Made by a program: the position numbers and the translations under genes. A stretch of DNA of 27,311 bases from Steroidobacteraceae bacterium. Its GTDB lineage: Bacteria; Pseudomonadota; Gammaproteobacteria; Steroidobacterales; Steroidobacteraceae. A model generated the notes under the pieces. The model searched no databases. It saw only the letters and a list, made by a program, of their open reading frames with translations, and had not been told where the DNA came from. Numbering within the stretch: position 1 is the first letter of the stretch; every line of letters starts with the position of its first letter. The stretch covers positions 1 to 27,311 of the forward strand of contig JALRHE010000184.1 of assembly GCA_023253235.1 (NCBI GenBank). Reading direction: 5' to 3'. Shown piece after piece: positions 1 to 27,311 of the stretch.

Positions 1-4328
<4,328 letters not shown>

Positions 4329-4334
4329 TGCATA

Positions 4335-4363
4335 ACTATAGAGATCGAAGTCAGCGCTGTCCA
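4335..4363 (-). promoter_or_regulatory. Sigma70-type promoter of the met operon
   Basis: TGGACA (4363-4358), 17-nt spacer, TATAGT (4340-4335); ATG 4328 follows after 6 nt. Confidence 0.7.
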
Positions 4364-4372
4364 TGAAACAAA

Positions 4373-4392
4373 ATAGTTTCAACTGAAACTAT
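4373..4392. promoter_or_regulatory. Perfect palindromic operator, probably for the MarR regulator of the hppD operon
   Basis: ATAGTTTCA-AC-TGAAACTAT has 9-bp perfect arms and overlaps TATAAT at 4390-4395. An extra TGAAAC half-site lies at 4364-4369. Confidence 0.72.
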
Positions 4393-4395
4393 AAT
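4390..4395 (+). promoter_or_regulatory. -10 element of the hppD promoter
   Basis: Consensus TATAAT 7 nt before ATG 4403. No recognisable -35 at 17-bp spacing. Confidence 0.55.
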
Positions 4396-4402
4396 GGCAG
4401 CC

Positions 4403-5494
4403 ATGACACCCACCTCGCCCCGCGACAACCCCATGGGACTCGACGGCTTTGAGTTCGTCGAATTTGCTTCCCCGCAACCCGGCGTCCTCGAGCCCGTCTT
4501 CGAAGCTATGGGCTTCAGTCTGGTTGCCCGCCATCGCTCCAAACAGGTCACGCTGTTCCGCCAAGGCGGAATCAATTTCATCCTGAACAACGAGCCGGCG
4601 AGCCAGGCGGCCTACTTCGCCGAGGAACATGGACCGGGCGCCTGCGGCATGGCCTTTCGCGTTCGCGATGCCCATCACGCCTACTCGAGAGCACTGAAGC
4701 TCGGCGCCCAACCGATCGAGGTTCCGACGGGACCGATGGAGCTGCGTTTGCCAGCCGTGCGCGCGATCGGTGGTGCCGCTCTCTATCTCATCGATCGCTA
4801 TCACGACGGCAGCAGCATCTACGACATCGACTTCACCTTCTTACCCGGAGCCGATCGCGCACCTGCCGGCGTCGGTCTCACGCATATCGACCATCTCACC
4901 CATAACGTCTATCGCGGACGCATGACGCACTGGGCAGGGTTCTACGAGCGCTTGTTCAACTTTCGTGAAATCCGTCACTTCGATATTCAGGGCACACACA
5001 CAGGGCTGCAGTCTCGCGCGATGACGGCACCCGACAATCGCATCCGCATCCCCCTGAATGAGGAGGACGGTAAGGGCGGCGGACAGATCGAAGAATTCCT
5101 GATGCGCTTCAATGGCGAGGGCATTCAGCACATTGCCTTGGCCACGACCGATCTGTGCGCGACGGTCGATCGATTGCGAGCGCGCGGCGTACCGCTGATG
5201 TCGGCACCGCCCGCGACCTACTACGAGGCGCTTGAGGAGCGTCTACCGGGGCACGATCAGCCCGTCGCGAAACTGCAGGAGCGCGGCATTCTGCTCGATG
5301 GCGACACGCGCGGCGATAAGCGACTACTGCTACAGATCTTTTCCGAATGCATGGTCGGTCCGCTTTTCTTTGAGTTCATTCAACGCGAGCGCGATGAGGG
5401 CTTTGGCGAAGGCAACTTCAAGGCGCTGTTCGAATCACTGGAGAGAGACCAGTTGCGTCGAGGCGCTCTCAGGACCGAGAGCTCCGTCGCATGA
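4403..5494 (+). CDS. hppD: 4-hydroxyphenylpyruvate dioxygenase (363 aa)
   Basis: [14 protein letters not shown]-terminus; Fe-ligand motifs DHLTHNV, GIQHIAL and FFEFIQR; C-terminal [18 protein letters not shown]. Confidence 0.97.
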
Positions 5495-6033
5495 GCCTGA
5501 TACGACGCATTCATCACGTCGCCTACCGTTGCAACGACGCTCGCGAGACCGTCGAGTTCTATCGCGATGTGCTCGGCATGGAGTTCACCGTAGCCTTCGC
5601 GGAGGATCGAGTCCCCTCCACCGGCGAACCCGACCCGTACATGCATGTCTTTCTGGATGCCGGCGGTGGCAACGTACTCGCCTTCTTCGAGTTGCCGACT
5701 CGCCCACCGATGGGTCGCGACCCAAATACCCCGCAATGGGTTCAGCATATTGCCTTCGAAGTGGCCGATCTCGCCACGCTGGCCCTCGCTCGAACGCGCT
5801 TACTCGATCGCGGCATCGAGGTCGTCGGGCCCACGGACCATGGCTTGTTTTGTTCGATCTATTTCTTCGATCCGAATGGTCATCGCCTCGAGCTGACCTG
5901 CAACACGGCGAGTGACGAGGCCACGGCGAAGGCACGCGCCAACGCGGAACCGATGTTGACCGAGTGGAGTCGCACGAAACGAGCTCCGAAACATAATGCC
6001 TGGCTACATGCGTCTGCGGAGCACAACTCATGA
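5491..6033 (+). CDS. VOC (glyoxalase/extradiol dioxygenase) family protein (180 aa)
   Basis: [16 protein letters not shown] and [14 protein letters not shown] give the His/His/Glu metal-site pattern. ATGA overlap with hppD. Confidence 0.9.
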
Positions 6034-7052
6034 AGCTTGCCAGCTTGCGCGATTCCACCCAACGCCGCGACGGACGACTCGTCGTCGTGTCACGTGATCT
6101 CACACGCTACCTCGATGCCCATTCGATTGCGCCGACACTGCAGGCCGCACTGGACGATTGGGCACGTCTCGAGCCGTCGCTTCAAACCCTGAGCGCTCGA
6201 GTCAATGCGGGCGAAGGTACGTCGTTCGATCCTGAGAAGTGTCTTTCGCCGCTACCGCGTGCCTTTCAGTGGGCCGATGGCTCCGCTTACGTGAATCATG
6301 TCGAGTTGGTACGTAAAGCGCGCGGCGCGGAGCTACCACCGTCTTTCTGGACCGATCCCTTGATGTACCAAGGCGGCTCCGACGGATTTCTGGCACCGAC
6401 CGAAGATATCCCTCTCGCGGATGCGCAATGGGGCCTCGACTTCGAGGCTGAGGTTGCCGTGATCACCGATGATGTTCCGCAGGCCTGCGATGCTCGAGCG
6501 GCTGGCGAGCACATCCGGCTTCTGATGCTCGTGAACGACGTGTCGTTGCGCGGCCTGATCGCGGGCGAACTCGCCAAGGGGTTTGGCTTCTTCCAGTCAA
6601 AGCCGGCTTCGGCTTTCTCGCCAGTCGCTGTCACGCCCGACGAACTCGGATCAGCCTGGGATGGCGGACGAGTACACCTGCCACTGCGAGTCCAACTCAA
6701 TGGCCGAGACTTTGGACGCGCCAATGCCGGCGTCGACATGACTTTTGATTTTCCGGCACTCATCGCCCATGCAGCGAAGACCCGAAGCCTAGCGGCCGGC
6801 ACCATCATCGGATCCGGCACGGTATCCAATCGTGACGCCGACGGCGGCCCCGGCCGCCCCATCGACGAAGGTGGACTCGGTTATTCTTGTATCGCCGAAC
6901 AGCGTACGGTGGAACAACTGCGCACGGGCGCTGTTTCCACGCCGTTCCTCTCATCGGGTGATCAAGTCAAAATCGAGATGCGGGATGCGAACGACCGTTC
7001 GATCTTCGGATCGATCGACCAGCGCGTAGTTGCCGTCAAAGATCATGCATGA
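6030..7052 (+). CDS. Fumarylacetoacetate hydrolase family protein (340 aa)
   Basis: Motifs DFEAEVAVITDD, MLVNDVSLR, FFQSKP and GTIIGSGTVSN. ATGA overlap with the VOC gene; located in the hppD operon. Confidence 0.93.
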   Translation: MKLASLRDSTQRRDGRLVVVSRDLTRYLDAHSIAPTLQAALDDWARLEPSLQTLSARVNAGEGTSFDPEKCLSPLPRAFQWADGSAYVNHVELVRKARGAELPPSFWTDPLMYQGGSDGFLAPTEDIPLADAQWGLDFEAEVAVITDDVPQACDARAAGEHIRLLMLVNDVSLRGLIAGELAKGFGFFQSKPASAFSPVAVTPDELGSAWDGGRVHLPLRVQLNGRDFGRANAGVDMTFDFPALIAHAAKTRSLAAGTIIGSGTVSNRDADGGPGRPIDEGGLGYSCIAEQRTVEQLRTGAVSTPFLSSGDQVKIEMRDANDRSIFGSIDQRVVAVKDHA

Positions 7053-7516: not shown

Positions 7517-10500
7517 ATGCCGACCCAACTTCCCAAGCGACGTCTCAACCTCATCGACCGGATCGTCAAGGCCGCCCAAGGTCAAGCCGATCGGATGCCG
7601 CTCGATATGCTGCGACGTTATTTCAGCGGTGTCGGGGAAGAAGATCTCGCCGCACGCGATGCGACTTACTTGGCCGGCATCGCCGGTTTGCACTACGGCC
7701 TCGCCGAGAAGCGACGCACCGACCAGACGCTGTTGAAGATCGTGCACGTGTCCGACTCGAGCAGCCTGGTACTCATCGCCACGGATGATCGGCCGTTCCT
7801 AGTCGAGTCTCTCGGAATCGCTTTTGCCGAAACGGGTGTTGCCGTGCGGATGCTCGTCCATCCCGTGCTGCACGTTAGACGAGATGGACGTGGTCGTTTG
7901 CAATCGACCCATGACGGGGCGCAGGAGCGCAGCCAAGCGGAATCCTGGCAGTTGTATGAAATTGACCGACTATGGGACAGCGAGTCGACCGCGCGCCTCG
8001 AATCGCGTCTGTATGCGGCGCTAGAGCATGTACAACTTGCCGTCACCGACTGGCTGGCCATGCGCGCCAAGGTTCGTCTAGCGATTGAGCAACTGACGAA
8101 AACCCCCTTGCGTGGCGAGCGCGCGCGGCAGCGCGACGAGGCGATCGCCCTGCTCAACTGGATGGAGGGAGCCCACTTCGTCTTCCTCGGCTATCAGTAT
8201 CAGCGTCTGACGCGCGGTGCCCACCGTGACCGTCTGCAAGCAGATCGACGCAGCGGGCTCGGCATTTTGCGCGCCGGCTCGGTGCAAACGGTCGCTACCG
8301 AGACCCTGCAAGGCGAACTACGCGATGCCATGCGCAGCAGCGACCCGTTGATCATCACGAAATCGGCTTTACGCTCCACGGTGCACCGCAGCGGTCATCT
8401 AGACCATTTGACCGTCAAAGATTTCGACACGCAGGGTCGCGTCCGCGGCGAACATCGCTTCCTGGGTCTGTGGACTGCTACCGCTTACTTCGCATCGCCC
8501 AACGATATCCCGGTCGTGCGTCGCAAAGTGTCAGAGGTCATCACTCGTTTCGGCCTCGACCCCCGCAGTCACGACGGCAAAGCCGTGCTTGCCGTACTGG
8601 AAACCTGGCCGCGCGACGAATTGTTCCAGTGCAGCCCTTCCGAACTTGTCGACTTCGTTCGTGGCGTCGTCAACCTCTACGATCGCCCGACCACGCGCGT
8701 CATGCTGCGTCATGACCCTCTAGGCCGTTTCTGGTCCTGCATGGCGTTTGTCCCTCGTGATCGCTACACCACCGAAGTCCGTCACCGCATCGAGGCGCTA
8801 TTGACGCGACACTGTGGTGGCAGTGATCTCGAATCGCAGGTTCAGATCGCCTTGTCCAATCATGCGCGCTTACACGTGATGATCCGGGGCGGGGTCGAGA
8901 AACTCTCAGGAGCACAAATTGCCGCTCTGGAGCGCGAAGTCGCCGACGCCGTTGCCACGTGGACGGATCACTTGCGCACGACCTTACAAGGCGCGCTCGC
9001 ACCGGCGGCGGCAGCACGACTCTTCCAGCGCTACGCAAACTTGTTCCCGTTGGCGTATCAAACAGCTGTTTCACCATCAACATCGCTGCAAGACATCAAC
9101 GCGATGGAGCACTTGGCGAACTCGAACGCCACGATGCACTGGCGCGTCCACCACCCCGAGCTTGATTCCCGGACGACACCAGCCCGTCTACATCTTCGTC
9201 TCGTACGACGAGGATCGAGTTTGCCGATCGCAGATCTGGTACCGATGTTCGAAAACTTCGGATTGCGTCTGTTGGGCGAGCAATCTTGGATCTTGGGTGA
9301 GACGAGCTCGCAGAAGATTGCCATCCAAGACTTCGAAATCGAACTGAAGGCCGACGCCCAGTTCCAAGTCGAGGCTGACGGCAATCGACTCCTCGAGGGC
9401 TTGCAGTCCGTTCGCGACGGGTTGATCGATAACGACGGGTTCAACCGCCTGTTGTTGTCGACTCCGCTCGATATCCGCCAAATCAACGTGCTGCGCGCCT
9501 GCTGTCGCTACCTGCTGCAAGCGGGCATCCCCTTCAGTCAACGCTACATGGAGCGCACGCTGGAGTCGAACGCGGCCGTCACCCACGATTTGTACCAACT
9601 CTTCGCAGTGCGTCACGATCCCAAGCTGCGCAAAGAGACACGCGAGAAAACCGAAGCGCAAATTCTCTCTCGGCTGGCGAAGCGACTCGACGGCATCGTG
9701 AATGCAGACGAGGATCGCATCCTACGAAGATTCCAGGCTGTCATCCTCGCCATCCTTCGCTGCAACTTCTTCCAGCGAGACCAAGACGGTCAGCATCGCC
9801 CGGTGCTGGCCTTCAAGCTCGATCCGAAGGTGATCCCCGACTTGCCGCTGCCGCGTCCACGTTACGAAATTTACGTGGTTGGTCCACGGGTCGAGGGCGT
9901 GCACCTACGCATGGGCGAGGTCGCCCGCGGTGGACTGCGTTGGTCGGACCGCCGCGAGGACTTCCGAACTGAAATCCTCGGCTTGATGAAGGCGCAGAAC
10001 GTCAAAAACACAGTCATCGTCCCGGTCGGTGCCAAAGGCGGCTTCGTTGCACGTCAGCTGCCGAGTGGGCCGCGCGACGCCATCCAGGCCGAAGGCATCG
10101 CGGCGTATCGCCAATACATCAACGCCTTGCTCGATCTGACGGACAATATCGTCGCCGGTCGCCTTGCACCGCCCGTGAATCTTCATCGCCGCGATGGTGA
10201 TGACCCTTATCTCGTCGTCGCCGCAGACAAGGGCACGGCGACGTTCTCGGATATCGCCAATTCAATCGCCGTAGAACGCGGTTTCTGGCTGGGTGACGCC
10301 TTCGCCTCAGGGGGGTCCGCCGGCTACGACCACAAAAAAATGGGGATCACCGCGCGCGGTGCGTGGGAGTGCGTCAAGCGACACTTCCGCGAGTTGGGTC
10401 GAGACATTCAGCGTGAGCCTTTCACGGTTGCTGGTGTCGGCGATATGTCCGGTGACGTCTTCGGTAACGGCATGCTGCTGTCGCAGCAGATCAAACTGGT

Positions 10501-12286
10501 CGCCGCATTCAACCATCAGCATATTTTCATTGATCCGAATCCCGATCCTGCCACCAGCTTTGCAGAGCGAGCGCGTCTATTCGCACTACCCCGCTCCTCT
10601 TGGACGGACTACAACTCCCGCCTGATCTCCAAGGGTGGCGGCATCTACGAGCGTAGCGCCAAATCGATTCCACTCAGCGCCGAAGCACGCTCGATGCTGC
10701 GTCTCGATGCGACGTCGGCAACGCCGAACGAGGTCATCCGCGCCGTTCTTCGTATGCCGGTCGATTTACTTTGGAATGGCGGAATCGGCACCTACGTCAA
10801 GGCGAGTGACGAACCTCAATCCGCTGCTGGCGATCGCAGCAACGATGCCGTGCGGGTCGACGGCCGCGAGGTACGCGCAAAAGTCGTGGGTGAAGGCGGC
10901 AATCTCGGCTGCACTCAACGCGGACGTGTCGAATACGCCCTCGCGGGCGGACGCATCAATACCGACTTCATCGACAATTCGGCTGGTGTGAACACCTCCG
11001 ACGTCGAGGTCAATCTCAAGATTTTGACCTCCGCCATCGAATCACGCGGTGCCTTGCGCCGAGCAGAGCGCGATCGTCTGCTCGCGCGCTTGACTCAGGA
11101 AGTCACGAAGCTCGTCCTTCGCAACAACTACTTGCAGAGCCAAGCGATATCGACACTCGAGCTGCAGTCAGCCGCGCGCCTACCGGAATTGCAGAGCCTG
11201 ATCAGGCACCTCGAACGCAAAGGCGAACTGGACCGTCAAGTCGAGAACCTACCGGACGACGAGGCACTGGCCGCACGTCGCAAACAAGGACTCGGCCTTA
11301 CGCGTCCCGAATTGGCCGTCGTGCTCGCCTACTCGAAGATCTCGCTCTATCGTCAATTGATCGACACCGATTTGCCGGACGACAGCTACTTCGCCCAGGA
11401 AGTGGAACGATACTTCCCATCGGCCGTGACACAACGCTTCAGCAAGGACGTTCGGCGCCACCAACTCAGAAGAGAGATCGTCACCACGGCCGTGACCAAC
11501 AGCCTAGTCAATCGCATGGGACCGAGTTTTGTCATGCGAGCGTGCGAGGAAACCGGTGCCTCGGCAGCCGACGTCGCTCGCGCCTACAGTATCGCTCGTG
11601 AGTTGTTGCAAGCGCGCGAAGTGTGGAGTGACATCGAAGCGCTCGACAATCGTATCCCGAGCGACGCGCAATACGCGGCTTACGCGGACACCGCCAGAAC
11701 CCTGCGTCATGCCACGATGTGGTTGCTACGACGTCAAAGTAAATTAGTCGTGGCCGACACGGTGTCCGAGTTGAGCACTCCGGTACGCACCTATCAGCAG
11801 ATCGTCCAACGCACTCTCAGCGGCGATCTCAAGCGCGAGTTCAGATCGACGGAGCAGCGTTACCTCGACGCAGGCCTGCCCGCAGCACTCGCGACTCGCT
11901 TGGCAGGCGGTATCTCGCGCGATGCCGCTTTCGATGTGGCCGAGCTCGCCAAACTGCAGAAGCGCCCTGTCGCTGCGGTTGCGGCCGATTGGTTTTCGAT
12001 CGGCGAGAAACTAAAGCTCGATTGGCTGGGATCGCGAATCGACCGCCTGGTCGTGGATGGACCACTGCAGGCAATCGCACGCTCCGGACTACGCGAGGCC
12101 GTACGCAAACTGCAACGCTCGATCGTCACGGCGGTCGCGAAGCAAGACTACACGCGATGGTCGGCTAGCCGACGGGAAGCGCTGACACGCTGGGAACGGA
12201 CGCTTGCGGACGTGTCGGCAGGTGGCTCGAGCGACTTCGCCGCCTTGTCGGTGTGTGTCGACAGCTTGCGCAGCCTCACCGACTAA
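7517..12286 (+). CDS. gdhB: Large NAD-specific glutamate dehydrogenase (1589 aa)
   Basis: Motifs RGGLRWSDRREDFRTE, KNTVIVPVGAKGGF, DDPYLVVAADKGTATFSD, GVGDMSGDVFGNGML and INTDFIDNSAGV; size typical of the ~180 kDa GDH class. Confidence 0.97.
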   Translation: MPTQLPKRRLNLIDRIVKAAQGQADRMPLDMLRRYFSGVGEEDLAARDATYLAGIAGLHYGLAEKRRTDQTLLKIVHVSDSSSLVLIATDDRPFLVESLGIAFAETGVAVRMLVHPVLHVRRDGRGRLQSTHDGAQERSQAESWQLYEIDRLWDSESTARLESRLYAALEHVQLAVTDWLAMRAKVRLAIEQLTKTPLRGERARQRDEAIALLNWMEGAHFVFLGYQYQRLTRGAHRDRLQADRRSGLGILRAGSVQTVATETLQGELRDAMRSSDPLIITKSALRSTVHRSGHLDHLTVKDFDTQGRVRGEHRFLGLWTATAYFASPNDIPVVRRKVSEVITRFGLDPRSHDGKAVLAVLETWPRDELFQCSPSELVDFVRGVVNLYDRPTTRVMLRHDPLGRFWSCMAFVPRDRYTTEVRHRIEALLTRHCGGSDLESQVQIALSNHARLHVMIRGGVEKLSGAQIAALEREVADAVATWTDHLRTTLQGALAPAAAARLFQRYANLFPLAYQTAVSPSTSLQDINAMEHLANSNATMHWRVHHPELDSRTTPARLHLRLVRRGSSLPIADLVPMFENFGLRLLGEQSWILGETSSQKIAIQDFEIELKADAQFQVEADGNRLLEGLQSVRDGLIDNDGFNRLLLSTPLDIRQINVLRACCRYLLQAGIPFSQRYMERTLESNAAVTHDLYQLFAVRHDPKLRKETREKTEAQILSRLAKRLDGIVNADEDRILRRFQAVILAILRCNFFQRDQDGQHRPVLAFKLDPKVIPDLPLPRPRYEIYVVGPRVEGVHLRMGEVARGGLRWSDRREDFRTEILGLMKAQNVKNTVIVPVGAKGGFVARQLPSGPRDAIQAEGIAAYRQYINALLDLTDNIVAGRLAPPVNLHRRDGDDPYLVVAADKGTATFSDIANSIAVERGFWLGDAFASGGSAGYDHKKMGITARGAWECVKRHFRELGRDIQREPFTVAGVGDMSGDVFGNGMLLSQQIKLVAAFNHQHIFIDPNPDPATSFAERARLFALPRSSWTDYNSRLISKGGGIYERSAKSIPLSAEARSMLRLDATSATPNEVIRAVLRMPVDLLWNGGIGTYVKASDEPQSAAGDRSNDAVRVDGREVRAKVVGEGGNLGCTQRGRVEYALAGGRINTDFIDNSAGVNTSDVEVNLKILTSAIESRGALRRAERDRLLARLTQEVTKLVLRNNYLQSQAISTLELQSAARLPELQSLIRHLERKGELDRQVENLPDDEALAARRKQGLGLTRPELAVVLAYSKISLYRQLIDTDLPDDSYFAQEVERYFPSAVTQRFSKDVRRHQLRREIVTTAVTNSLVNRMGPSFVMRACEETGASAADVARAYSIARELLQAREVWSDIEALDNRIPSDAQYAAYADTARTLRHATMWLLRRQSKLVVADTVSELSTPVRTYQQIVQRTLSGDLKREFRSTEQRYLDAGLPAALATRLAGGISRDAAFDVAELAKLQKRPVAAVAADWFSIGEKLKLDWLGSRIDRLVVDGPLQAIARSGLREAVRKLQRSIVTAVAKQDYTRWSASRREALTRWERTLADVSAGGSSDFAALSVCVDSLRSLTD

Positions 12287-18455: not shown

Positions 18456-18573
18456 GGTTATTTTGCTTGAAAATCAGCCAGTTGCAAGTGCTGGATGCAG
18501 TCGGCGACCGACTTGCCTACAATCGCGCCCCTTGCGTCAGCCAATGGGGCCCTCGCCCGATGGGAGGCAGATC

Positions 18574-19482
18574 ATGTCGAGAACCGTACAGGTCTTTCAG
18601 GTCGACGCGTTCACGCGGCAACTTTTCACCGGTAACCCTGCAGGTGTCGTGCTTGGCGCCGAGGTATTGAGCGACGAGGAGATGCTTGCCATCGCCCGCG
18701 AGCTCAACAACGGTGACACCGCGTTCGTACTGCCGCCCGAGAGTGACGATCACGATCTGCGCGTGCGATTTTTCACACCTCGCACCGAATCCGCCTTCGT
18801 CGGTCACGCCACCATCGCGACCCACTACGTTCTCTCGCGTGATGCCGCACCACATCCGGGACGAGCTCGTCAAAAGCAGAAAGCCGGACGGGTCGACGTC
18901 GAAATCCGCGGCTCAGGCGCAGACCGCCGTATCGCCGTTCGACAGCCCGCGCCCCCGTTAGGTCGTGAGCTGAATGAACGTGAGCGACTTGCCGTGCTCG
19001 ATGCCCTCGCACTCTCGAGTGCCGATCTCGATCCGCGCTGCGAGATGCGTATCGTCGGTGGCGCGGGCAATCGACTGCTCATCGGCGTGCGCGGCACTCA
19101 GCAATTGAAGCAGATGAAACCGGACTTTGGCCGTCTGACGACGCTCTCGGCACAGCTCGGCGCATCGGGACACTTCGTGTTCACGACCGAATCGGGGCAA
19201 GCGGACTGCCTCACGCTGTCACGCATGTTTTGTCCGGCTATCGGCATTCCCGAAGATCCGGTCAGTGGTAACGCACACGGACTGCTCGGCGCTTACCTCT
19301 TGCACCACGGACTTCTGGAGCGCAACGGCGATAAAGTCGAGTTCTCAGGCGCTCAAGGCCAATTTCAAAACCGCCCTGGTCGAGTCGACGTTGAGTTGGA
19401 GTTCGAGGATGGTCGTCTCGCGGGCGTGTGGATCGTGGGCAGTGCGGCGATGGTCTTTGAAACCACCATCACTCTGCCCTGA
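18574..19482 (+). CDS. PhzF/YddE-family isomerase (diaminopimelate epimerase-like fold; 302 aa)
   Basis: Motifs QVDAFT...GNPAGVV, FFTPRTE...GHAT, RMFCPAIGIPEDPVSGNAHG and QG...RPG. GGGAGG SD before ATG 18574. Confidence 0.92.
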   Translation: MSRTVQVFQVDAFTRQLFTGNPAGVVLGAEVLSDEEMLAIARELNNGDTAFVLPPESDDHDLRVRFFTPRTESAFVGHATIATHYVLSRDAAPHPGRARQKQKAGRVDVEIRGSGADRRIAVRQPAPPLGRELNERERLAVLDALALSSADLDPRCEMRIVGGAGNRLLIGVRGTQQLKQMKPDFGRLTTLSAQLGASGHFVFTTESGQADCLTLSRMFCPAIGIPEDPVSGNAHGLLGAYLLHHGLLERNGDKVEFSGAQGQFQNRPGRVDVELEFEDGRLAGVWIVGSAAMVFETTITLP

Positions 19483-19550: not shown

Positions 19551-20153
19551 ATGAGAAACTCACTCTTGCTGGCAATCGGACTCTGCGTTGTATCGATGGC
19601 ACCACTGGCTGCGGCCTCGCCGTTGTGCGCAACGAGCGAACAACGATCCCTTATCCAAGCGGCGATGGCTGATCCGGCTAAACCCGCACCCTACCGAGTC
19701 GCGGCGAAACTCTCGTTGCCGGAGGCAACCGTCCAGAGCGCGTTGGCGCCGGCGAGTTACGGAGTCGATGCGAGCGTTTTCCGCAGTGTCTGGACCAGCC
19801 TCACGGCATGGGACGAAGCTGTCACTGTCGTCATGAAAGGCGGCCATATCTTTGAAACACATGGCCGTATACCCGAGGGAGAACCCTCGAAGCGCAGTCA
19901 ATTCTTCAATCTGAAATCGGAAGCCGAGGGCATGCATGGCCATTTGCGTCCTGACCAGCTGTCGGCAATCTACGTAATGGAACTCGCCATCGGCGACGAA
20001 ACGCAGCGTGGTGTGTTGTTCTACGACAAGCAGGGTGACATCGCTTTCGGCGTTTATCTGCCCGGTGAGGGACACACGCCGACAACGGCGACGCTGCAGC
20101 AGTTTGCGGCAACGCGCAGTTTGATCGAGAAGCAGCCGGCGCTCTGCCGCTAA
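19551..20153 (+). CDS. Secreted ChuX/HutX-like protein (200 aa)
   Basis: Sec-type signal peptide, then AKLSLPEA, W..L..W, FE..G, FFNL, GHL and LFYDKQG...F.VYL, matching my recollection of the ChuX/HutX pattern. AGGAG SD. Confidence 0.65.
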   Translation: MRNSLLLAIGLCVVSMAPLAAASPLCATSEQRSLIQAAMADPAKPAPYRVAAKLSLPEATVQSALAPASYGVDASVFRSVWTSLTAWDEAVTVVMKGGHIFETHGRIPEGEPSKRSQFFNLKSEAEGMHGHLRPDQLSAIYVMELAIGDETQRGVLFYDKQGDIAFGVYLPGEGHTPTTATLQQFAATRSLIEKQPALCR

Positions 20154-20168: not shown

Positions 20169-21167
20169 TCAGCGCAGTATCTCGTCGACGATCGAGTCGA
20201 CACCGTAACGAACCGGGTCCGATGCGGGCAGACTGAAACGCTGCGCGAGTTCGCTCAGCAAACGGCGCGCCGCGTCATCGGCCAGCGCTGAAGTGTTGAT
20301 CGCCATGCCGACAAAACGAGCGGCGGGATTCATCATTCGCGCACAGCGCAAATGCAACTCGAAGCAGTCCTCTAGCGTCGGGACAGGCCAGTGCGGCAAA
20401 CCGCGCAGGTGTTGGCGGGTTGGCTCATGACACATGACCAACGCATCGGGCGTCGCGCCATGCAGTAATCCGAGACTGACTCCCGAGTATGACGGGTGAA
20501 AGAGCGACCCCTGCCCCTCGATCAGATCCCAGTGATCAGGCGTATTCGCTGGACAGAGCTGCTCGACGGAACCGGCGACGAAATCCGACACCACCGCGTC
20601 GACTGGAACACCGCCGCCCGCGATCATGATGCCGGTCTGTCCGGTCGCGCGAAAATCAGCCGGCACACCTCGGTCGCGCAACGCGCGCTCCAAAGCCAGC
20701 GTCGTGTACATCTTGCCAACCGAACAGTCGGTGCCGACGGCGAGTAGACGGCGCCCGCTGCGAGGCAACGCGTTGGCGATCGGGTATTGCGCGGGTTCCC
20801 GCACTTCGATGATGCGAGCGCCGGATCGCGCTGCAGCCTCGCGAATGGGGGCGATACTCCCAAGACGGGTATGCAGACCGTTACAAAGGTCGTAACCAAG
20901 TTCCAGCGCACGCACGAGCACCGAAATCCAGCTCTCGGCAATGGTGCCGCCTCGATTCGCCACCCCGATGAGCAGGGTACGCGCACCGCGACGACGCCCT
21001 TCCTCCAAGTCGATTTCATCGATAGGCAACTTGGGAACACAACCGGGCAAACGCAACTGACCGACGCACTCCTCGGGCCGCCATTGCCACACGCCGATCG
21101 CGGTCTTGGCGGCAAGATCATCGTGAGCATCACCGAGGAACAGCAAATACGGCTTGTGGATGATCAT
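20169..21167 (-). CDS. dgcN: DUF1611-family protein, DgcN-like D-glutamate N-acetyltransferase (332 aa)
   Basis: PYLLFLGDA...AAKTA N-terminus, GTDCSVGKMYT, FRATGQTGI, DAVVSDF and IEGQGSLFHPSY. GGAGG SD. ATGA overlap with the upstream gene. Confidence 0.85.
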   Translation of the reverse strand: MIIHKPYLLFLGDAHDDLAAKTAIGVWQWRPEECVGQLRLPGCVPKLPIDEIDLEEGRRRGARTLLIGVANRGGTIAESWISVLVRALELGYDLCNGLHTRLGSIAPIREAAARSGARIIEVREPAQYPIANALPRSGRRLLAVGTDCSVGKMYTTLALERALRDRGVPADFRATGQTGIMIAGGGVPVDAVVSDFVAGSVEQLCPANTPDHWDLIEGQGSLFHPSYSGVSLGLLHGATPDALVMCHEPTRQHLRGLPHWPVPTLEDCFELHLRCARMMNPAARFVGMAINTSALADDAARRLLSELAQRFSLPASDPVRYGVDSIVDEILR

Positions 21168-22066
21168 CGCAACGCCTCCGTCAACACGAGCGATACGTCG
21201 GCAATCCATTTTTGAGCCGCGTTATCGGGCGAGTAGTCTATCTGCGGCAGACCATCGATCGTAATGGCAATCGCCACGCGCCCGTGAGGGGTATAGACGA
21301 TCCCGACATCACTACGCAGCGCATCGAGTGAGCCCGACTTGCTCGCCACCCGAAACTGATCGATTTTGCGTCCAATTCCATCCTTGTATTGCTGCCGCTC
21401 GAGCATCTGCAGAACGAGTCGCGAGGAATCGCCGTCGACCACTTTCCCCTGCTCGAGCAACTCCAACAAGCGAACCATCTCTCGCGGCGTCGAGACACCG
21501 ATACCGAAACGTTGGTTCTCGGGACGACCGCCTTCGCGCGTCCACCCCTGTGCCGGCTTGAGCTGATTCCCATCCCCTCGAATCTTGCGCATCACTCGAG
21601 TCCGCTCGAAACCGAGTGACGCCAAATATTCGTTCACTGGATCGCCACCGACTCGATCGAGGATGAGATTGGTGGCCGTGTTGTCACTGACTATGATCAT
21701 CAGCATCGTCGCATCGCGCAGCGAGATCGACTCACCGTCGCTGAAATCCGCGAGTACGCCCGACCCCGAGACCTTGTCTTCGGCGCGAATGGTCAACCGA
21801 TCAGACCAAGCGTATTTACCATCGGCCACGAACTGGGCGACCGCACAAGCGATCGGTAATTTGATCGTACTGGCGGTACGTACCGGCTCGTCCGCATCGA
21901 TGGCGACGTCACGCCCTGAGTCGAGGTTGCGCGCGTAGAGCGAGACTCGCCCATCGATCTGCTTGGACATCTCACGCACACGCGCTTCAAGCTCCTCGGC
22001 AGACGCCGGGACCGAACAAACACCCAAGACCAACAGGACCGCGGTAACGATCGACCGGACCTTCAT
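21164..22066 (-). CDS. Secreted class A beta-lactamase-like serine hydrolase (probable peptidase; 300 aa)
   Basis: Signal peptide; SxxK (STIK), SDN and KSG motifs; the Glu166-equivalent position appears to be Ile. Confidence 0.88.
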   Translation of the reverse strand: MKVRSIVTAVLLVLGVCSVPASAEELEARVREMSKQIDGRVSLYARNLDSGRDVAIDADEPVRTASTIKLPIACAVAQFVADGKYAWSDRLTIRAEDKVSGSGVLADFSDGESISLRDATMLMIIVSDNTATNLILDRVGGDPVNEYLASLGFERTRVMRKIRGDGNQLKPAQGWTREGGRPENQRFGIGVSTPREMVRLLELLEQGKVVDGDSSRLVLQMLERQQYKDGIGRKIDQFRVASKSGSLDALRSDVGIVYTPHGRVAIAITIDGLPQIDYSPDNAAQKWIADVSLVLTEALR

Positions 22067-23559
22067 GTCGTGCTCCGAGGCTGCGTATCGTGAGACTTGC
22101 CGATCGGCAGCAACGCAACGCCGAGACACAAGCCTAAACCCAGCGGAAACAACCACGGGAATGCGACCAACTTACCGCTGTCAACCAAACCGAATATCGA
22201 TGCATTGTCGATCACGAGCACCCCGACGATCGATGCCACGACGCCGAGTGCCGGTTGACGGATGTAACGCTTGGGAATGAACAAAGCCATCAAGAACAAG
22301 CCCAGCATCGACCCATAGGTATAGGCCGTCATGGCGAATGCGAGTGGAATGAGTCGCTCGTCGGTTCCGCCGAGCATGATGGCAAATCCACCGAGCGCGA
22401 CACCCCAGAACGCGACGAGAAGACGTGATAGCCACACAGCATCAGCATCGGCCAGAGTCCCTCGGCGATGCCCATCATGGAACATCGTGAGACTGGTCTC
22501 GGCTAATGCCGACAAGACCGGGCTCGACATGGCAGCGGCAAAGAGTGCAGCCACCATGAAGCCGCGTAATCCACTCGGCAACTCGGAAAGAATGAACGCA
22601 GGAAAAATCCGATCGGTATTCTCAGCCACCATTCCGGCGAAAGCGGGGTCTATCGCCTCGCGACCGTAAAAACCCCACAGCGACACACCCACCAACAGAA
22701 ACAGTACGACTACTCCCTCACCAATGTTGCTGGCATAGAGCGCGCGGCGAGCCTCGGTCACAGATCGACAACACAACATGCGTTGCGTGTTCAACTGATC
22801 GGTACCGTAGGCCGCCAGATTCTGAAATGGCATTGCGAAGACGCCGGCCCAGAACGTGAAGCTCACGAGCGGATCGGTCGAAAAGTCGAAGATGCGGGTT
22901 TTTCCAGCGTCATCCGCTGCACTCATCAGCGTGCTGAACCCACCCGGATACTCTGCAGCGACATACCAAACGGCAATCAAACCACCCGCGATCAACATGA
23001 TGAACTGGACGACATCGGTCCACACGACGGCCCTTACGCCGCCGAGCCAAGTGCTGACCACGGCCACACCGACACTCAGCATCACGCACCACGTGAAATC
23101 GAGGCCCGTCAGCAGCTCCAGAACCAGCGAGACCGCAAAGATGCGCACGCCTTGCCCCAGAATGGCCCCGACGAAGAACAGCAACGCCGACAACTGACCG
23201 AAGCGCGAGCCCAGCCGATCGCGGATGTAATCGTAGGGACTGGCATACGAGCCTGCGTAAAGCTTGGGCATGATCCAGTGACCGAAGATCCACTTCGAGA
23301 TGAACCCGGCGACACAGAACTGCAGATAGCGGAAATCCCCGCCGTCGGCGAATACCAACGCAGGGACACCGATGAAGGTCACGCCACTGACAGTTGTAGA
23401 GATGATCGACGCCGACACGGCATACCAAGGCAAACTACGCGAGCCGAGGAAGTACTCGTGAACGTTGGATTGGCGACCGCTCAGGCGATGCCCAATCAAA
23501 GTGACGAGCGCGAAGTAAGCGCCCACCACCAACCAATCGAGGATGCCGAAATACGTCAT
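22063..23559 (-). CDS. Sodium:solute symporter (SSS) family transporter (498 aa)
   Basis: Motifs EYFLGSR.LPW, SGVTFIG.P, GGVRAVVWTDVVQ, GTDQ...QR.L and GLRGFMVAALFAAAMSS. Confidence 0.94.
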   Translation of the reverse strand: MTYFGILDWLVVGAYFALVTLIGHRLSGRQSNVHEYFLGSRSLPWYAVSASIISTTVSGVTFIGVPALVFADGGDFRYLQFCVAGFISKWIFGHWIMPKLYAGSYASPYDYIRDRLGSRFGQLSALLFFVGAILGQGVRIFAVSLVLELLTGLDFTWCVMLSVGVAVVSTWLGGVRAVVWTDVVQFIMLIAGGLIAVWYVAAEYPGGFSTLMSAADDAGKTRIFDFSTDPLVSFTFWAGVFAMPFQNLAAYGTDQLNTQRMLCCRSVTEARRALYASNIGEGVVVLFLLVGVSLWGFYGREAIDPAFAGMVAENTDRIFPAFILSELPSGLRGFMVAALFAAAMSSPVLSALAETSLTMFHDGHRRGTLADADAVWLSRLLVAFWGVALGGFAIMLGGTDERLIPLAFAMTAYTYGSMLGLFLMALFIPKRYIRQPALGVVASIVGVLVIDNASIFGLVDSGKLVAFPWLFPLGLGLCLGVALLPIGKSHDTQPRSTT

Positions 23560-24347
23560 ACGCGCGGCAATCTGCGGCCAGACCCCTCACCCGGATAAAC
23601 GCGTCCGTTGGCGCCCGGGTAGGCATAGCCGTTGATCAGCACGCGACGCGAAAACTGTGATTCGTTCGATGTGCTGCCATGCACAGCATAGGGACCGAAA
23701 AAAAGCACTGAGCCACTCTCTCCGGTGACCGTGATTGCCGCCGACTCGTCGAACTGCGCAGCCTCCGCTGCAGGATCCATCGGGGTGCCGTAGTCGTAGT
23801 GCGAGGAGAAGATGCGTCCCTCGGCATCACCCCGAACCGATTCGCGCGGAATGAACTTGAGCGGCCCGTTTTTCTCCGTCATGTCGTCGATCAGCGTGAT
23901 CGTCTGCACATAGGAGCCCCGACCGTTCAAATCCTTCCAGGTGCCAGGGCCCTTATCGCGGTGCTGAATATCCTGGTGCCAATCGAATGAGACGCCATCA
24001 CCGGGCATCTTGAAGTGCGCCTGACATAGCAACTGCTCGCAATGATCACTGCCGAGTAACTGCAGAGCAGGCTCAACCAATCGGCTATCAGCCGACAAAT
24101 CCAGCAACGTGGACTCCGCTCCACCAGCCCAAACCACTCGCTTGACGATCACCTCACCCTGCGGCGGAGCTTCCAAGACGAAATACGCACCGGCGTGATT
24201 TTGGGTCGTGCGCAATTGCTGTGCTGTGACATACAAACGCTCGAAGGCCTCACGGGCACGACTCATCTCGCTCGAGGAGAACAGCGCGGGAACCACCACC
24301 CAGCCGCGATCGAAGAATGCTGCAACCTGTTCAGCCGACAATTTCAT
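23556..24347 (-). CDS. PhyH-family Fe(II)/2-oxoglutarate dioxygenase (263 aa)
   Basis: LS.EQV..F...GW N-terminus, WHQD (HxD), IDDMT..NGPL, distal VHGS..N.S..SRR. No signal peptide. ATGA overlaps on both sides. Confidence 0.9.
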   Translation of the reverse strand: MKLSAEQVAAFFDRGWVVVPALFSSSEMSRAREAFERLYVTAQQLRTTQNHAGAYFVLEAPPQGEVIVKRVVWAGGAESTLLDLSADSRLVEPALQLLGSDHCEQLLCQAHFKMPGDGVSFDWHQDIQHRDKGPGTWKDLNGRGSYVQTITLIDDMTEKNGPLKFIPRESVRGDAEGRIFSSHYDYGTPMDPAAEAAQFDESAAITVTGESGSVLFFGPYAVHGSTSNESQFSRRVLINGYAYPGANGRVYPGEGSGRRLPRV

Positions 24348-26731
24348 CTCGATGAGCCCTCGACTCCATAGATCAAAAACTCCCGCCGCGACTGTCGCCA
24401 CTCGTTCTCGACCGTCCGCCAGGAATCCACGACGACATCAACCGAAAGACCGGATCGAAGCTGCCCGACGATCTGACGCCCGAACAAGCCCGCGATCCGA
24501 TCAAGCTCGAATTCACTCGGGTACAACCGATGCAGGGCGTGGGCCAGCTCGACGCCGAGTCGTACCGGTTTCAAGGCCGCACGATCCGTCACGACGAAGA
24601 ACACACCATGACACAGTTCGCCGGCAAACTTGCTGCTCGTCGGCGTGAAACTGACCGGGTAGACACGTAAGCCCGATATGTTTCTCGCATTGAGTTCACG
24701 AGCGAGCTCGGTTGCATCGATCCACGGTGCACCAATGAGCTGGAATGGAGTGTCGGTACCGCGACCCACCGAGACGTTCGCTCCTTCGATCGTGGCAACT
24801 CCCGGGTAGAGGCTCGTCGAGACGAGATTACGAAGATTTGGTGAGGGATTGACCCAGCGAAGACCCGACTCGTCGAACCAGCTGCGACGATCCCATCCCT
24901 GCACGGGGATCACCGTCAGCGCTGCCGACGTTTTGCGGTTGAAGTAGCGAGCAAGCTCGCCGATCGTCAAACCATGTCGAATCGGCATTGGTTGATAAGC
25001 CGTAAACGATAACTCCGCGGAATCGAGACTTGGGCCCTCGATACTCACGCCATCAATGGGGTTGATTCGATCCAGCACGATCACAGGCAGCTTACGGGCT
25101 GCAGCAGCTTCGAGCATGTAAGCCATACTGGTGGCGTACGTATAGAAGCGCGCACCGACATCTTGCAAGTCGATCACGATGACATCGAGATTGGCCAACA
25201 TCGCGTCGGTCGGTCGACGAGTTTCCCCATAGAGCGAGTGAATGACGAGACCCGTCTTCGCATCGCGCGACGAAGGCACCTTTTCATCCAGCTCGCCCCG
25301 AATGCCATGCTCAGGGCTGAACAATGCGGCTAACGTCACGCCATCCGCTTGCGCCAGTAGGTCGATAGTCGTCAACCCGTCGTGCGAGCGGCCCGTCTGA
25401 TTGGTTAGCAGTCCGACTCGTTTGCCCTGCAGCGGCGCAAATCCACTCGCCCTGAGCACATCGATACCTTGCCGTACGTCGCCAACACTCACGGCACGCG
25501 CGAGTGGCGCAGTTGGAAACTCCGGCGAAGCGTAACGCTGCGCACGCCATCGATCGACGGGTTCGCTCGCAGAAAACTCCGCCGCCACGATCGTGGCGAC
25601 CTTGGATCGCACTGGCGTCGCATCGCCCTTGCCATCGGGATGCACCCGGTTGGTCAGCAGCACGACATAGGTTCGACTGACTGGATCGATCCAGATCGAC
25701 GTGCCGGTAAAACCCGTATGACCAAAAGATCCAATCGGATATAGGTCGCCGCGATTGGCCGAGTAACTGCTGTCAATGTCCCAGCCGAGCCCACGCTGCA
25801 CATTCAAATTCGGCGGCGTTGCCGTCGATGTCATGCGGACTACGCCCGCGGGCGACAGCACACGTCGTCCATCCAGTTCGCCACCGCGCAGCAACATGCG
25901 CGCGAATCTCGACAGATCTTCGGCGGAACCGAACAAACCCGCATGACCTGCCACGCCACCCATACGACGGGCCGTCGGATCGTGCACGATGCCTTGCAGC
26001 AATATTTGATTCGGGCCATCGCATGGCCAACCGTAGGCAGTACAGAACTGGGTCGGCGCGATCACATCGCGTCGCGCCTCTATCGGTGTGAATCCGGCCG
26101 ATGTCATGCGCATCGGATCGAGAATCCGCTGCTGCACGAATGTCTGCAGCGGTTGACCTGCGACTCTCGCTACGATTTCACCCAGGACGATGTAGCCGAT
26201 ATCGCTATAGACGAAGCGCTCACCGGGCGCCGACTGCGGGAGCTCGTCGACAGCTCGCCGAACGGCCTCATCGGCGCCCAACCAATCGCCCCTCAGATCG
26301 AGACTCGGACGCAGACCCGACGTGTGCGTCAGCAGATGACGCAAGGTGATCTGATCTTTATCGTGTCTCGCGAACTCCGGCAGATGTTGCGCGACTTTAT
26401 CGGAGAGCCGAAGTTTGCCCTCCTCTACGAGGATCATCACCGACGTCGCCGTCGCGATGCCCTTGGTCAACGATGCCAGGTCGAATACGGTGTCGAGCCT
26501 CATCGGCTCGAGCGTCGGTTTTACAGCGCGATAACCATACGCTTTACGGTACAGGGTTTGATCACCACGCCCGATCCACACCACGGCACCCGGGATCTGC
26601 TGCCGCGTGATGGCATCCTCGATCGCGGCATCGACTTTGTTGGTCCAACCGGATCCCGCTGCGGATGCGACCGAACCGAGCAGCGCGAGCATGCCCCACG
26701 CCAGCGCACGTATCGGACCGACTTTGATCAT
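24344..26731 (-). CDS. namZ: Secreted fusion: class C beta-lactamase-fold hydrolase (AmiE-like) plus exo-beta-N-acetylmuramidase NamZ (DUF1343/GH171) domain (795 aa)
   Basis: N-domain has FDLASLTK (SxxK), YSD.GY and GHTGFTG. C-domain has VGLLTNQTG, FSPEHG.RG, SLYG, DLQDVGARFYTY, RHG.T.GEL, PSPN and VSVGRGT..PF. Signal peptide present. Confidence 0.92.
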   Translation of the reverse strand: MIKVGPIRALAWGMLALLGSVASAAGSGWTNKVDAAIEDAITRQQIPGAVVWIGRGDQTLYRKAYGYRAVKPTLEPMRLDTVFDLASLTKGIATATSVMILVEEGKLRLSDKVAQHLPEFARHDKDQITLRHLLTHTSGLRPSLDLRGDWLGADEAVRRAVDELPQSAPGERFVYSDIGYIVLGEIVARVAGQPLQTFVQQRILDPMRMTSAGFTPIEARRDVIAPTQFCTAYGWPCDGPNQILLQGIVHDPTARRMGGVAGHAGLFGSAEDLSRFARMLLRGGELDGRRVLSPAGVVRMTSTATPPNLNVQRGLGWDIDSSYSANRGDLYPIGSFGHTGFTGTSIWIDPVSRTYVVLLTNRVHPDGKGDATPVRSKVATIVAAEFSASEPVDRWRAQRYASPEFPTAPLARAVSVGDVRQGIDVLRASGFAPLQGKRVGLLTNQTGRSHDGLTTIDLLAQADGVTLAALFSPEHGIRGELDEKVPSSRDAKTGLVIHSLYGETRRPTDAMLANLDVIVIDLQDVGARFYTYATSMAYMLEAAAARKLPVIVLDRINPIDGVSIEGPSLDSAELSFTAYQPMPIRHGLTIGELARYFNRKTSAALTVIPVQGWDRRSWFDESGLRWVNPSPNLRNLVSTSLYPGVATIEGANVSVGRGTDTPFQLIGAPWIDATELARELNARNISGLRVYPVSFTPTSSKFAGELCHGVFFVVTDRAALKPVRLGVELAHALHRLYPSEFELDRIAGLFGRQIVGQLRSGLSVDVVVDSWRTVENEWRQSRREFLIYGVEGSSR

Positions 26732-26817: not shown

Positions 26818-27311
26818 TCAAAAGTCGACGCGCAACGAGAGCTGCACACGCCGCGGCAGGAAGAAGCTGCGTGCCTGACCAAACTGCGGGCTGTAGTCGA
26901 CCGGATCAATGTTGTATCCGGTCTGTCGATCGAACACGTTGAAGAGATCCGCACGGAACTTCAAGGTGGGCAACGAGGCCACTTGGAATTCCTGCGTGTA
27001 GTTCAGATCGAGTTGCCAGTGACTGGCGCTGCGACGGCTACCCGCGGGCTCGGCGTAAGACGAGGTCGTGTCGTACGAGTTGTTGACGCGCAGACCATAG
27101 TAAGTGCCCGACCACTTCTCCCAAGGCTGACCCGACTGGAACACGAAGTACGCGCCCAAGTTGGCTTTCCAATCCGTGGTGTAGTGACCGAATACCTTGA
27201 GCAAGTACGGGCGATCGCCCGAGAGCGTGCCGTCCTTATTATCCCAAGGGAACTTACCCGGATCATCGGCATAAAACGACGAACCGATGAACGTATTGGC
27301 GTCGTTGACCG
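26818..27311 (-). CDS. C-terminal part of a TonB-dependent receptor (5' end outside the window)
   Basis: Frame is open from the right edge. Ends QLDLNY...FRADLFNVF...PRRVQLSLRVDF with a terminal Phe, as expected for an outer-membrane beta-barrel. Double stop TGA TAG. Confidence 0.88.
   Translation of the reverse strand, partial: VNDANTFIGSSFYADDPGKFPWDNKDGTLSGDRPYLLKVFGHYTTDWKANLGAYFVFQSGQPWEKWSGTYYGLRVNNSYDTTSSYAEPAGSRRSASHWQLDLNYTQEFQVASLPTLKFRADLFNVFDRQTGYNIDPVDYSPQFGQARSFFLPRRVQLSLRVDF

Follow-up and report, generated by a model that had tools for sequence, protein, structure and literature searches.

A predicted PhyH-family dioxygenase paired with a SiaT-like sodium symporter in cell wall salvage loci: a candidate oxygen-dependent step in the use of peptidoglycan fragments

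We analysed a 27,311-nucleotide stretch of DNA (the window), which is contig JALRHE010000184.1 (C190 in our numbering) of a Steroidobacteraceae bacterium known from a metagenome-assembled genome (GCA_023253235.1; 2.0 Mb, 442 contigs, 78% complete). A tight gene row occupies its minus strand from 27311 to 20169 and includes a gene for a PhyH-family Fe(II)/2-oxoglutarate (2OG) dioxygenase, which is the subject of this study (Table 1). Two ATGA overlaps can be read directly from the sequence: at 24347-24344 the start of the dioxygenase gene overlaps the stop codon of a gene for a NamZ fusion protein, and at 23559-23556 its own stop codon overlaps the start of a gene for an SSF sodium:solute symporter. 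A preliminary description of this DNA had placed the gene as coupled between NamZ and the symporter, and the overlap at each end bears this out.

Table 1. Coordinates of the features discussed in the text (positions refer to the window unless another contig is named)
Feature	Position	Strand	Evidence
Putative large outer-membrane receptor gene, 3' end, cut by the window edge; upstream of the operon	26818..27311	minus	
Secreted 795-residue fusion: signal peptide, class-C beta-lactamase-fold (PBP4B/AmiE-like) domain, NamZ (GH171) exo-beta-N-acetylmuramidase	24344..26731	minus	Pfam, NCBIfam
PhyH-family Fe(II)/2OG dioxygenase, 263 residues	23556..24347	minus	Pfam, conserved residues, AF2 model
SSF sodium:solute symporter, 498 residues	22063..23559	minus	Pfam SSF 1.5e-31, TIGR00813 194 bits
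Exported class-A-beta-lactamase-like/PBP-A-like serine hydrolase	21164..22066	minus	Pfam Beta-lactamase2 8e-63
DgcN, D-glutamate N-acetyltransferase family; final operon gene	20169..21167	minus	NCBIfam NF041892 495.6 bits, cut-off 480
ChuX/HutX-like gene, convergent	19551-20153		
PhzF-family gene, convergent	18463-19482		
APH-family gene	16043-14904		Top match thiamine-kinase-like
NAD-specific glutamate dehydrogenase, large bacterial type, 1589 residues	7517-12286		
hppD-VOC-FAH row	4394-7052		
amgK-like kinase, contig C117 (L087)	3780-4886	minus	AmgK top match 276.7 bits, under cut-off 550
murU, contig C117 (L087)	3067-3783	minus	NF045761 298.7 bits, cut-off 250
Two tandem dioxygenase homologues, contig C117 of genome G032 (L095)	8544-9353 and 10760-11608		50% identical to the dioxygenase

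The ATG at 24347 was taken as the likely start codon of the dioxygenase gene, because the homologues are 260-270 residues long and open with the same M-(K/R)-L-S; an alternative GTG start at 24401 would lengthen the protein by 18 residues, which are missing from the homologues. The protein matches Pfam PhyH (PF05721) over profile positions 4-213 of 213 (E = 8e-23; 82.2 bits versus a cut-off of 22). H124-Q-D126, H223 and R234 are invariant in an alignment of 14 orthologues, and in a wider alignment of 74 relatives H124, D126 and H223 remain invariant and R234 is at least 90% conserved. The motif around the iron ligands reads F-D-W-H-Q-D-I-Q-H-R-D-K-G. The family further shares a highly polar set of invariant residues (CEQLLCQAHFKMPGDGVSFDWHQDIQHRDKG) and two conserved C-terminal arginines, R249 and R258. 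An AF2 model (pLDDT 93.6, pTM 0.92) adopts the double-stranded beta-helix (DSBH) fold, and Foldseek relates it with probability 1.00 to GriE, H11, EctD and PAHX (TM-scores 0.63-0.72; E values from 1e-17 to 1e-15 for GriE, proline hydroxylase H11 and EctD). The N-terminus, MKLSAEQVAAFFDRGW, contains no hydrophobic signal sequence, and the enzyme is thus predicted to be cytoplasmic. Judged by these sequence features, the gene encodes a bona fide, intact Fe/2OG dioxygenase of the PhyH family; the cytoplasmic PhyH-type enzyme with an intact HxD...H triad that had been described earlier is recovered by the PF05721 match, the conserved triad and the missing signal sequence.

The closest characterised enzyme is the L-leucine 5-hydroxylase GriE (PDB ID 5nci; 27-28% identity, Foldseek E = 1e-17). 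With GriE, H11 and EctD the dioxygenase shares PF05721, the DSBH fold, the HxD...H motif, a 2OG-binding arginine ∼11 residues past the distal histidine and a similar length. It differs from them in that sequence identity is just 20-28%, in its set of invariant polar residues, and in its genomic context, which is scavenging or catabolic rather than biosynthetic. In GriE, Arg242 of the C-terminal loop holds the substrate carboxylate (PMC5676206). GriE and EctD both bind the carboxylate of their substrates by a C-terminal arginine, and R249/R258 are found at similar spacing here; from this spacing, they would suit any carboxylate substrate, N-acetylmuramic acid (MurNAc) included. More distant relatives comprise phosphonate and hypophosphite dioxygenases (HtxA, PhnY, methylphosphonate hydroxylase) and the sugar-oxidising enzymes SnoK/SnoN and EvdO1/2. 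We rejected an identity with EctD: the TIGR02408 model scores 41.8 bits versus a cut-off of 336.5, and the signature F-x-W-H-S-D-F-E-T-W-H-x-E-D-G is not matched. The label 'ectoine hydroxylase' carried by homologues is an automatic name.

We scanned one genome per species (185,579 species), located 94 loci encoding an orthologue, 80 of which were retrieved, and added loci from metagenome contigs. In 41 loci, spread over seven lineages, the next gene downstream encodes an SSF orthologue (47-96% identical) in the same orientation. This adjacency is found in every Steroidobacteraceae locus, and also in Woeseiaceae and other Gammaproteobacteria. In a maximum-likelihood tree, 87 orthologues fall into one clade (support 100/99), in which the SSF-linked lineages are basal and paraphyletic and the 42 copies from Myxococcota group together in one nested clade that lacks SSF. 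The remaining solo cases are L078 and the G032 locus with its two copies, which brings the solo loci to 44. Since the SSF-linked lineages are basal and paraphyletic and the Myxococcota solo clade is nested, the pairing appears to be ancestral. By these sequence comparisons the conserved unit is the PhyH-SSF pair, with the predicted SiaT-like sodium symporter as the ancestral partner of the dioxygenase.

The dioxygenase is rare: of 201 sampled genomes of the family, 6 have it. A search of 400 other genomes of the class returned no orthologue, so no new contexts were gained. The relatives are of lake and river origin and bear the label Steroidobacteraceae or Acidibacter. Two contigs of metagenome-assembled genomes (L011 and L036) are Steroidobacteraceae-like yet deposited as Klebsiella pneumoniae, almost certainly because the records were mislabelled. 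The two tandem copies in G032 are nearly identical to each other; they follow nuoL/M/N-like genes and sit beside an epoxide hydrolase gene, with a TIR-domain (CAP12/Pycsar-type) gene close by, and we found no symporter or cell wall gene near them.

The closest solved relative of the symporter is SiaT from Proteus mirabilis (PDB ID 5nv9; 135 bits over the full length, ∼25-30% identity), whereas PutP or PanF models score 62-67 bits. The SiaT substrate, sialic acid, is a carboxylated N-acetyl amino sugar. Residues T58, S60, T63, Q82 and N247, with which SiaT binds carboxylate and sugar (PMC5931594), have equivalents that are invariant in 15 SSF orthologues. SiaT F243, Q250 and G81 are not kept, which argues that the substrate is not sialic acid itself.

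We searched the surroundings of these two genes in every locus, within the retrieved flank, with a panel of Pfam-annotated neighbour proteins. At least one peptidoglycan gene is found nearby in 32 of the 41 SSF-linked loci, and its kind varies between clades. The clade of the window contributes an M19 dipeptidase, an exported LdcA, the receptor, the beta-lactamase-NamZ fusion, the PBP-A-like protein and DgcN, and the fusion is again present in L031. A second Steroidobacteraceae clade of 17 loci has a separate secreted NamZ, encoded divergently (13 loci), and a NagX-like HGSNAT membrane protein (11 loci). In L032-L037 we find LdcA, a bona fide TonB receptor, a protein with Acyl_transf_3 and transglycosylase domains (OatA-like) and a GDSL esterase. 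An AmiD-like lipoprotein amidase gene immediately follows the SSF gene in L086, and a gene for a cytoplasmic NagZ-type GH3 enzyme does so in L092/L093. Most accessory enzymes carry signal peptides or lipoboxes, which fits a wall that is dismantled in the periplasm before import. In the genus, each of the 13 carriers has two or three NamZ genes, usually with one of them no more than a few kilobases from the dioxygenase gene, and 10 of 11 non-carriers have one; these genomes are related, and the comparison is an association rather than a statistical test. Two NamZ architectures, the extra NamZ paralogue in carriers and the other wall genes across clades extend the link between the SSF-linked dioxygenases and MurNAc-releasing or other peptidoglycan enzymes to many genomes besides this one. 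Taken together, the enzyme is probably a peptidoglycan-fragment oxygenase, and the module probably helps to exploit a compound that stems from peptidoglycan.

On four marine metagenome contigs (L088-L091), SSF orthologues (46-48% identical) occur without the dioxygenase, directly before a gene for an AmiD-like lipoprotein amidase (Amidase_2 plus PG_binding_1), and an SNF transporter and an M16 peptidase are encoded near this pair.

The fusion protein has a hydrophobic N-terminus and matches Beta-lactamase (3e-75), NamZ_N (8e-76) and NamZ_C (1e-44) in Pfam, with both NamZ domains complete; PBP4B is its top NCBIfam match. The receptor fragment (163 residues) aligns at 93-98% identity with the C-termini encoded by the upstream genes of L008-L012, and at 75% identity with the corresponding one of L022. 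Its full-length orthologues have ∼1000 residues, with an N-terminal CarboxypepD_reg domain seen in the L022 protein; a Pfam search of the 163-residue fragment itself gave no match, and the fragment probably derives from an Oar-like TonB-dependent receptor. The class-A-beta-lactamase-like protein, which reaches 106 bits against the NCBIfam class A model (under the cut-off of 200) and is found only in the closest relatives (L007-L012), is probably a stem-peptide peptidase. No DgcA-type racemase gene adjoins dgcN; the ChuX/HutX-like and PhzF-family genes come next in convergent orientation. Elsewhere in the window, the glutamate dehydrogenase gene is accompanied by the hppD-VOC-FAH row and a MarR-type gene.

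What could the substrate be? MurNAc is an (R)-lactyl ether, and to our knowledge this ether is the sole peptidoglycan bond closed to hydrolases. Our best single guess, offered tentatively, is that the PhyH-SSF pair forms an O2-dependent MurNAc route in which the lactyl ether is removed oxidatively. The outer-membrane receptor would take in wall fragments, which the secreted amidase-like/NamZ fusion and the LdcA, M19 and PBP-like peptidases would break down in the periplasm. The symporter would then bring in one acidic end product, most likely MurNAc, the product of NamZ. The dioxygenase would carry out the first cytoplasmic step, a hydroxylation at the lactyl ether, and collapse of the resulting hemiketal would yield N-acetylglucosamine (GlcNAc) and pyruvate, or 3-keto-GlcNAc and lactate, with no phosphorylation and no MurQ. 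Precedent for such chemistry comes from TfdA and RdpA/SdpA, which hydroxylate beside the ether oxygen of 2-oxy-acetate or 2-oxy-propionate compounds to give an alcohol and glyoxylate or pyruvate. We infer both which compound is the substrate and that its ether is cleaved. A muramyl sugar is favoured by NamZ as the best-correlated partner, by the sugar-side neighbours (NagX-like, NagZ, OatA-like/GDSL) and by the SiaT-like transporter, and also by the fact that no wall bond other than the lactyl ether calls for a non-hydrolytic attack.

Several observations weigh against an etherase. Free amino acids or ectoine, not sugars, are the substrates of the nearest characterised enzymes, none of which cleaves ethers. 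The dioxygenase is not of the TauD family, to which RdpA/SdpA, invoked in the preliminary description for their analogous chemistry, belong: a Pfam scan of the dioxygenase matched PhyH alone, with no match to TauD (PF02668) at E ≤ 0.01. In the symporter, SiaT Arg135 aligns to an alanine, with an invariant arginine of transmembrane helix 3 (R139) one helical turn beyond that position. None of the 44 solo loci has wall genes or an SSF gene nearby, and there is little wall context in eight SSF-linked loci from two marine-type clades (an AmiD-like amidase in one of the loci), their neighbours being an amino-acid permease, a Cys/Met pyridoxal phosphate (PLP) enzyme, an M28 peptidase and an aldo-keto reductase. 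Three genomes with the pair, one of them a complete Woeseiaceae chromosome, lack any NamZ, and NamZ occurs without the dioxygenase in 155 genomes of the family.

The distribution of MurQ does not help the etherase either. No TIGR00274 match over the cut-off was found in the genome of the window (best 26.6 bits), in any of 11 carrier genomes (this one and ten more), or in four non-carrier congeners. The earlier proposal that genomes with the orthologue should lack murQ therefore holds for the carriers, but MurQ is also over the cut-off in none of 201 family genomes (with one match below it) and strongly matched in only 2 of 151 genomes of the class. Because the family and nearly the whole class are without MurQ, its absence from carriers is uninformative, and we discarded MurQ anticorrelation as evidence either way. 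NamZ is present in 160 of the 201 family genomes and NamZ without MurQ is the rule there, in contrast to its usual co-occurrence with MurQ (PMC8054146). Most such genomes manage without the dioxygenase.

MurNAc moreover has a known anabolic fate in this organism. The window itself is devoid of murQ, amgK and murU, as had been noted before, and profile searches of it found no MurK or MurP; its APH-family gene was considered as AmgK and rejected as thiamine-kinase-like. An amgK-murU pair is nevertheless present on contig C117, with lptD divergent beside it, followed by lipA and lipB, and four congeners that we checked also have an adjacent pair of APH-family kinase and nucleotidyltransferase genes. 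AmgK and MurU would lead MurNAc straight to UDP-MurNAc. NagA was not found in the five carriers examined, so GlcNAc released by an etherase would be reusable via AmgK/GlmU and not burned by the standard route. The findings on MurQ, NamZ, AmgK-MurU and NagA do not refute the etherase reading, but they take away the argument from necessity.

The recycling genes of the genus show a gap of their own, at 1,6-anhydro-MurNAc. AnmK (PF03702) is found in none of 21 genus genomes, with or without PhyH, and we therefore rejected a correlation between PhyH and the absence of AnmK. AmpG occurs in 20 of the 21, carriers included, which also dismisses the symporter as an AmpG replacement, and a NagZ-type GH3 enzyme is encoded in all five carrier genomes checked.

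Three other readings have to be set against an oxidative MurNAc etherase. The pair might import and hydroxylate an amino acid or small peptide that stems from peptidoglycan (for instance D-glutamate with or without an N-acetyl group, meso-diaminopimelate, or part of a stem peptide), which the sugar-acting neighbours would merely free. We consider this unlikely, although it has the enzyme's nearest relatives on its side, free amino-acid and ectoine hydroxylases with a carboxylate-holding C-terminal arginine, as well as the conservation of R249 and R258. Peptide-side enzymes (LdcA, M19, PBP-A-like, DgcN, M28) often adjoin the pair, the amino-acid permease and the Cys/Met PLP enzyme are found near it in L079/L081, and the missing NagA suggests that sugars are not the fuel. 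However, the largest clade (17 loci) has only sugar-side wall genes beside the pair, namely NamZ and NagX-like, and NamZ copy number tracks the dioxygenase. DgcN is confined to the closest relatives, the symporter is closer to SiaT than to the PutP/PanF models, and no catabolic logic requires the hydroxylation of such amino acids.

The enzyme could also act on a muramyl sugar without cutting the ether, either by opening 1,6-anhydro-MurNAc oxidatively in place of AnmK or by modifying MurNAc or GlcNAc-MurNAc ahead of AmgK/MurU. The counts for AnmK (0/21) and AmpG (20/21) would fit the former, AmiD-like and cytoplasmic NagZ neighbours are consistent with anhydro-muropeptide processing, an aldo-keto reductase (L084) and a short-chain dehydrogenase/reductase (L022) adjoin the pair, and the PhyH-family enzymes SnoK/SnoN and EvdO1/2 oxidise sugar carbons. 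Yet AnmK is missing from carriers and non-carriers alike, NamZ as the best-correlated partner gives reducing MurNAc rather than the anhydro form, and the chemistry is without precedent, which makes this reading quite improbable. Least probable of all is that the substrate is some small acidic solute with no relation to peptidoglycan (osmolyte-like, phosphonate-like or another carboxylate), and that the pair owes its position in wall loci only to common regulation or to the structure of the island. The pair has neighbours from at least seven families of wall genes, spread over five deep clades, among them L086 and L092 from outside the Steroidobacteraceae, the SSF-only marine contigs carry wall genes too, the PhyH gene is coupled to NamZ by ATGA in the window, and the EctD model stays at 42 bits versus a cut-off of 336. 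These points are set against the 44 solo and eight SSF-linked loci with little or no wall context, the presence of EctD, HtxA, PhnY and methylphosphonate hydroxylase among the structural neighbours, and the circumstance that the wall-linked loci are not independent, because they belong mostly to one bacterial family. Overall, an amino acid or peptide is favoured by the enzyme's nearest relatives, the peptide-side neighbours and the missing NagA, and a muramyl sugar by the partners and the transporter of the dioxygenase.

Peptidoglycan stores organic carbon and nitrogen on a large scale in water and soil, and we know of no solution for its lactyl ether other than MurQ. Of the gammaproteobacterial families sampled, almost all are without MurQ, and NamZ is common in Steroidobacteraceae. 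If the oxidative etherase reading is true, MurQ-less aerobes such as freshwater Steroidobacteraceae, Woeseiaceae and predatory Myxococcota could break the sole non-hydrolysable peptidoglycan bond. Any dioxygenase step in wall salvage would add a new kind of enzyme to a pathway that has been studied thoroughly, and through it a rare, highly conserved PhyH subfamily and a SiaT-like transporter family would gain a function. Even with a different substrate, the module would mark a cell wall-derived compound whose use requires oxygen. Our literature search found no description of an Fe/2OG enzyme in peptidoglycan salvage; the superfamily and the kind of locus are known, and the oxygenase-symporter module inside such a locus is new.

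Compared with known systems, the likeness to RdpA/SdpA and TfdA lies in the proposed mechanism alone, as these enzymes belong to another Pfam family and have no detectable sequence relationship to the dioxygenase beyond the superfamily fold. Pseudomonas-type anabolic MurNAc salvage is represented by the amgK-murU pair of the same genome. Among transporters, a parallel to the SSF protein may be seen in MurT from Tannerella, the sole characterised MurNAc importer outside the phosphotransferase system: it has been assigned to the sodium symporter superfamily, although the Discussion of the same paper places it in the major facilitator superfamily (PMC5790795). The operon as a whole resembles MurQ-based catabolism as in Bacillus subtilis (murQ-murR-murP-amiE-nagZ-namZ) and Tannerella forsythia (ampG-namZ-murT-murK-murQ), with which it shares a NamZ-type exo-muramidase, an AmiE-like beta-lactamase fold, a dedicated sodium-coupled importer (as MurT has been described, PMC5790795) and the operon layout. 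It differs from them in having no MurQ, MurK or MurP, and in that an Fe/2OG dioxygenase fills the cytoplasmic slot.

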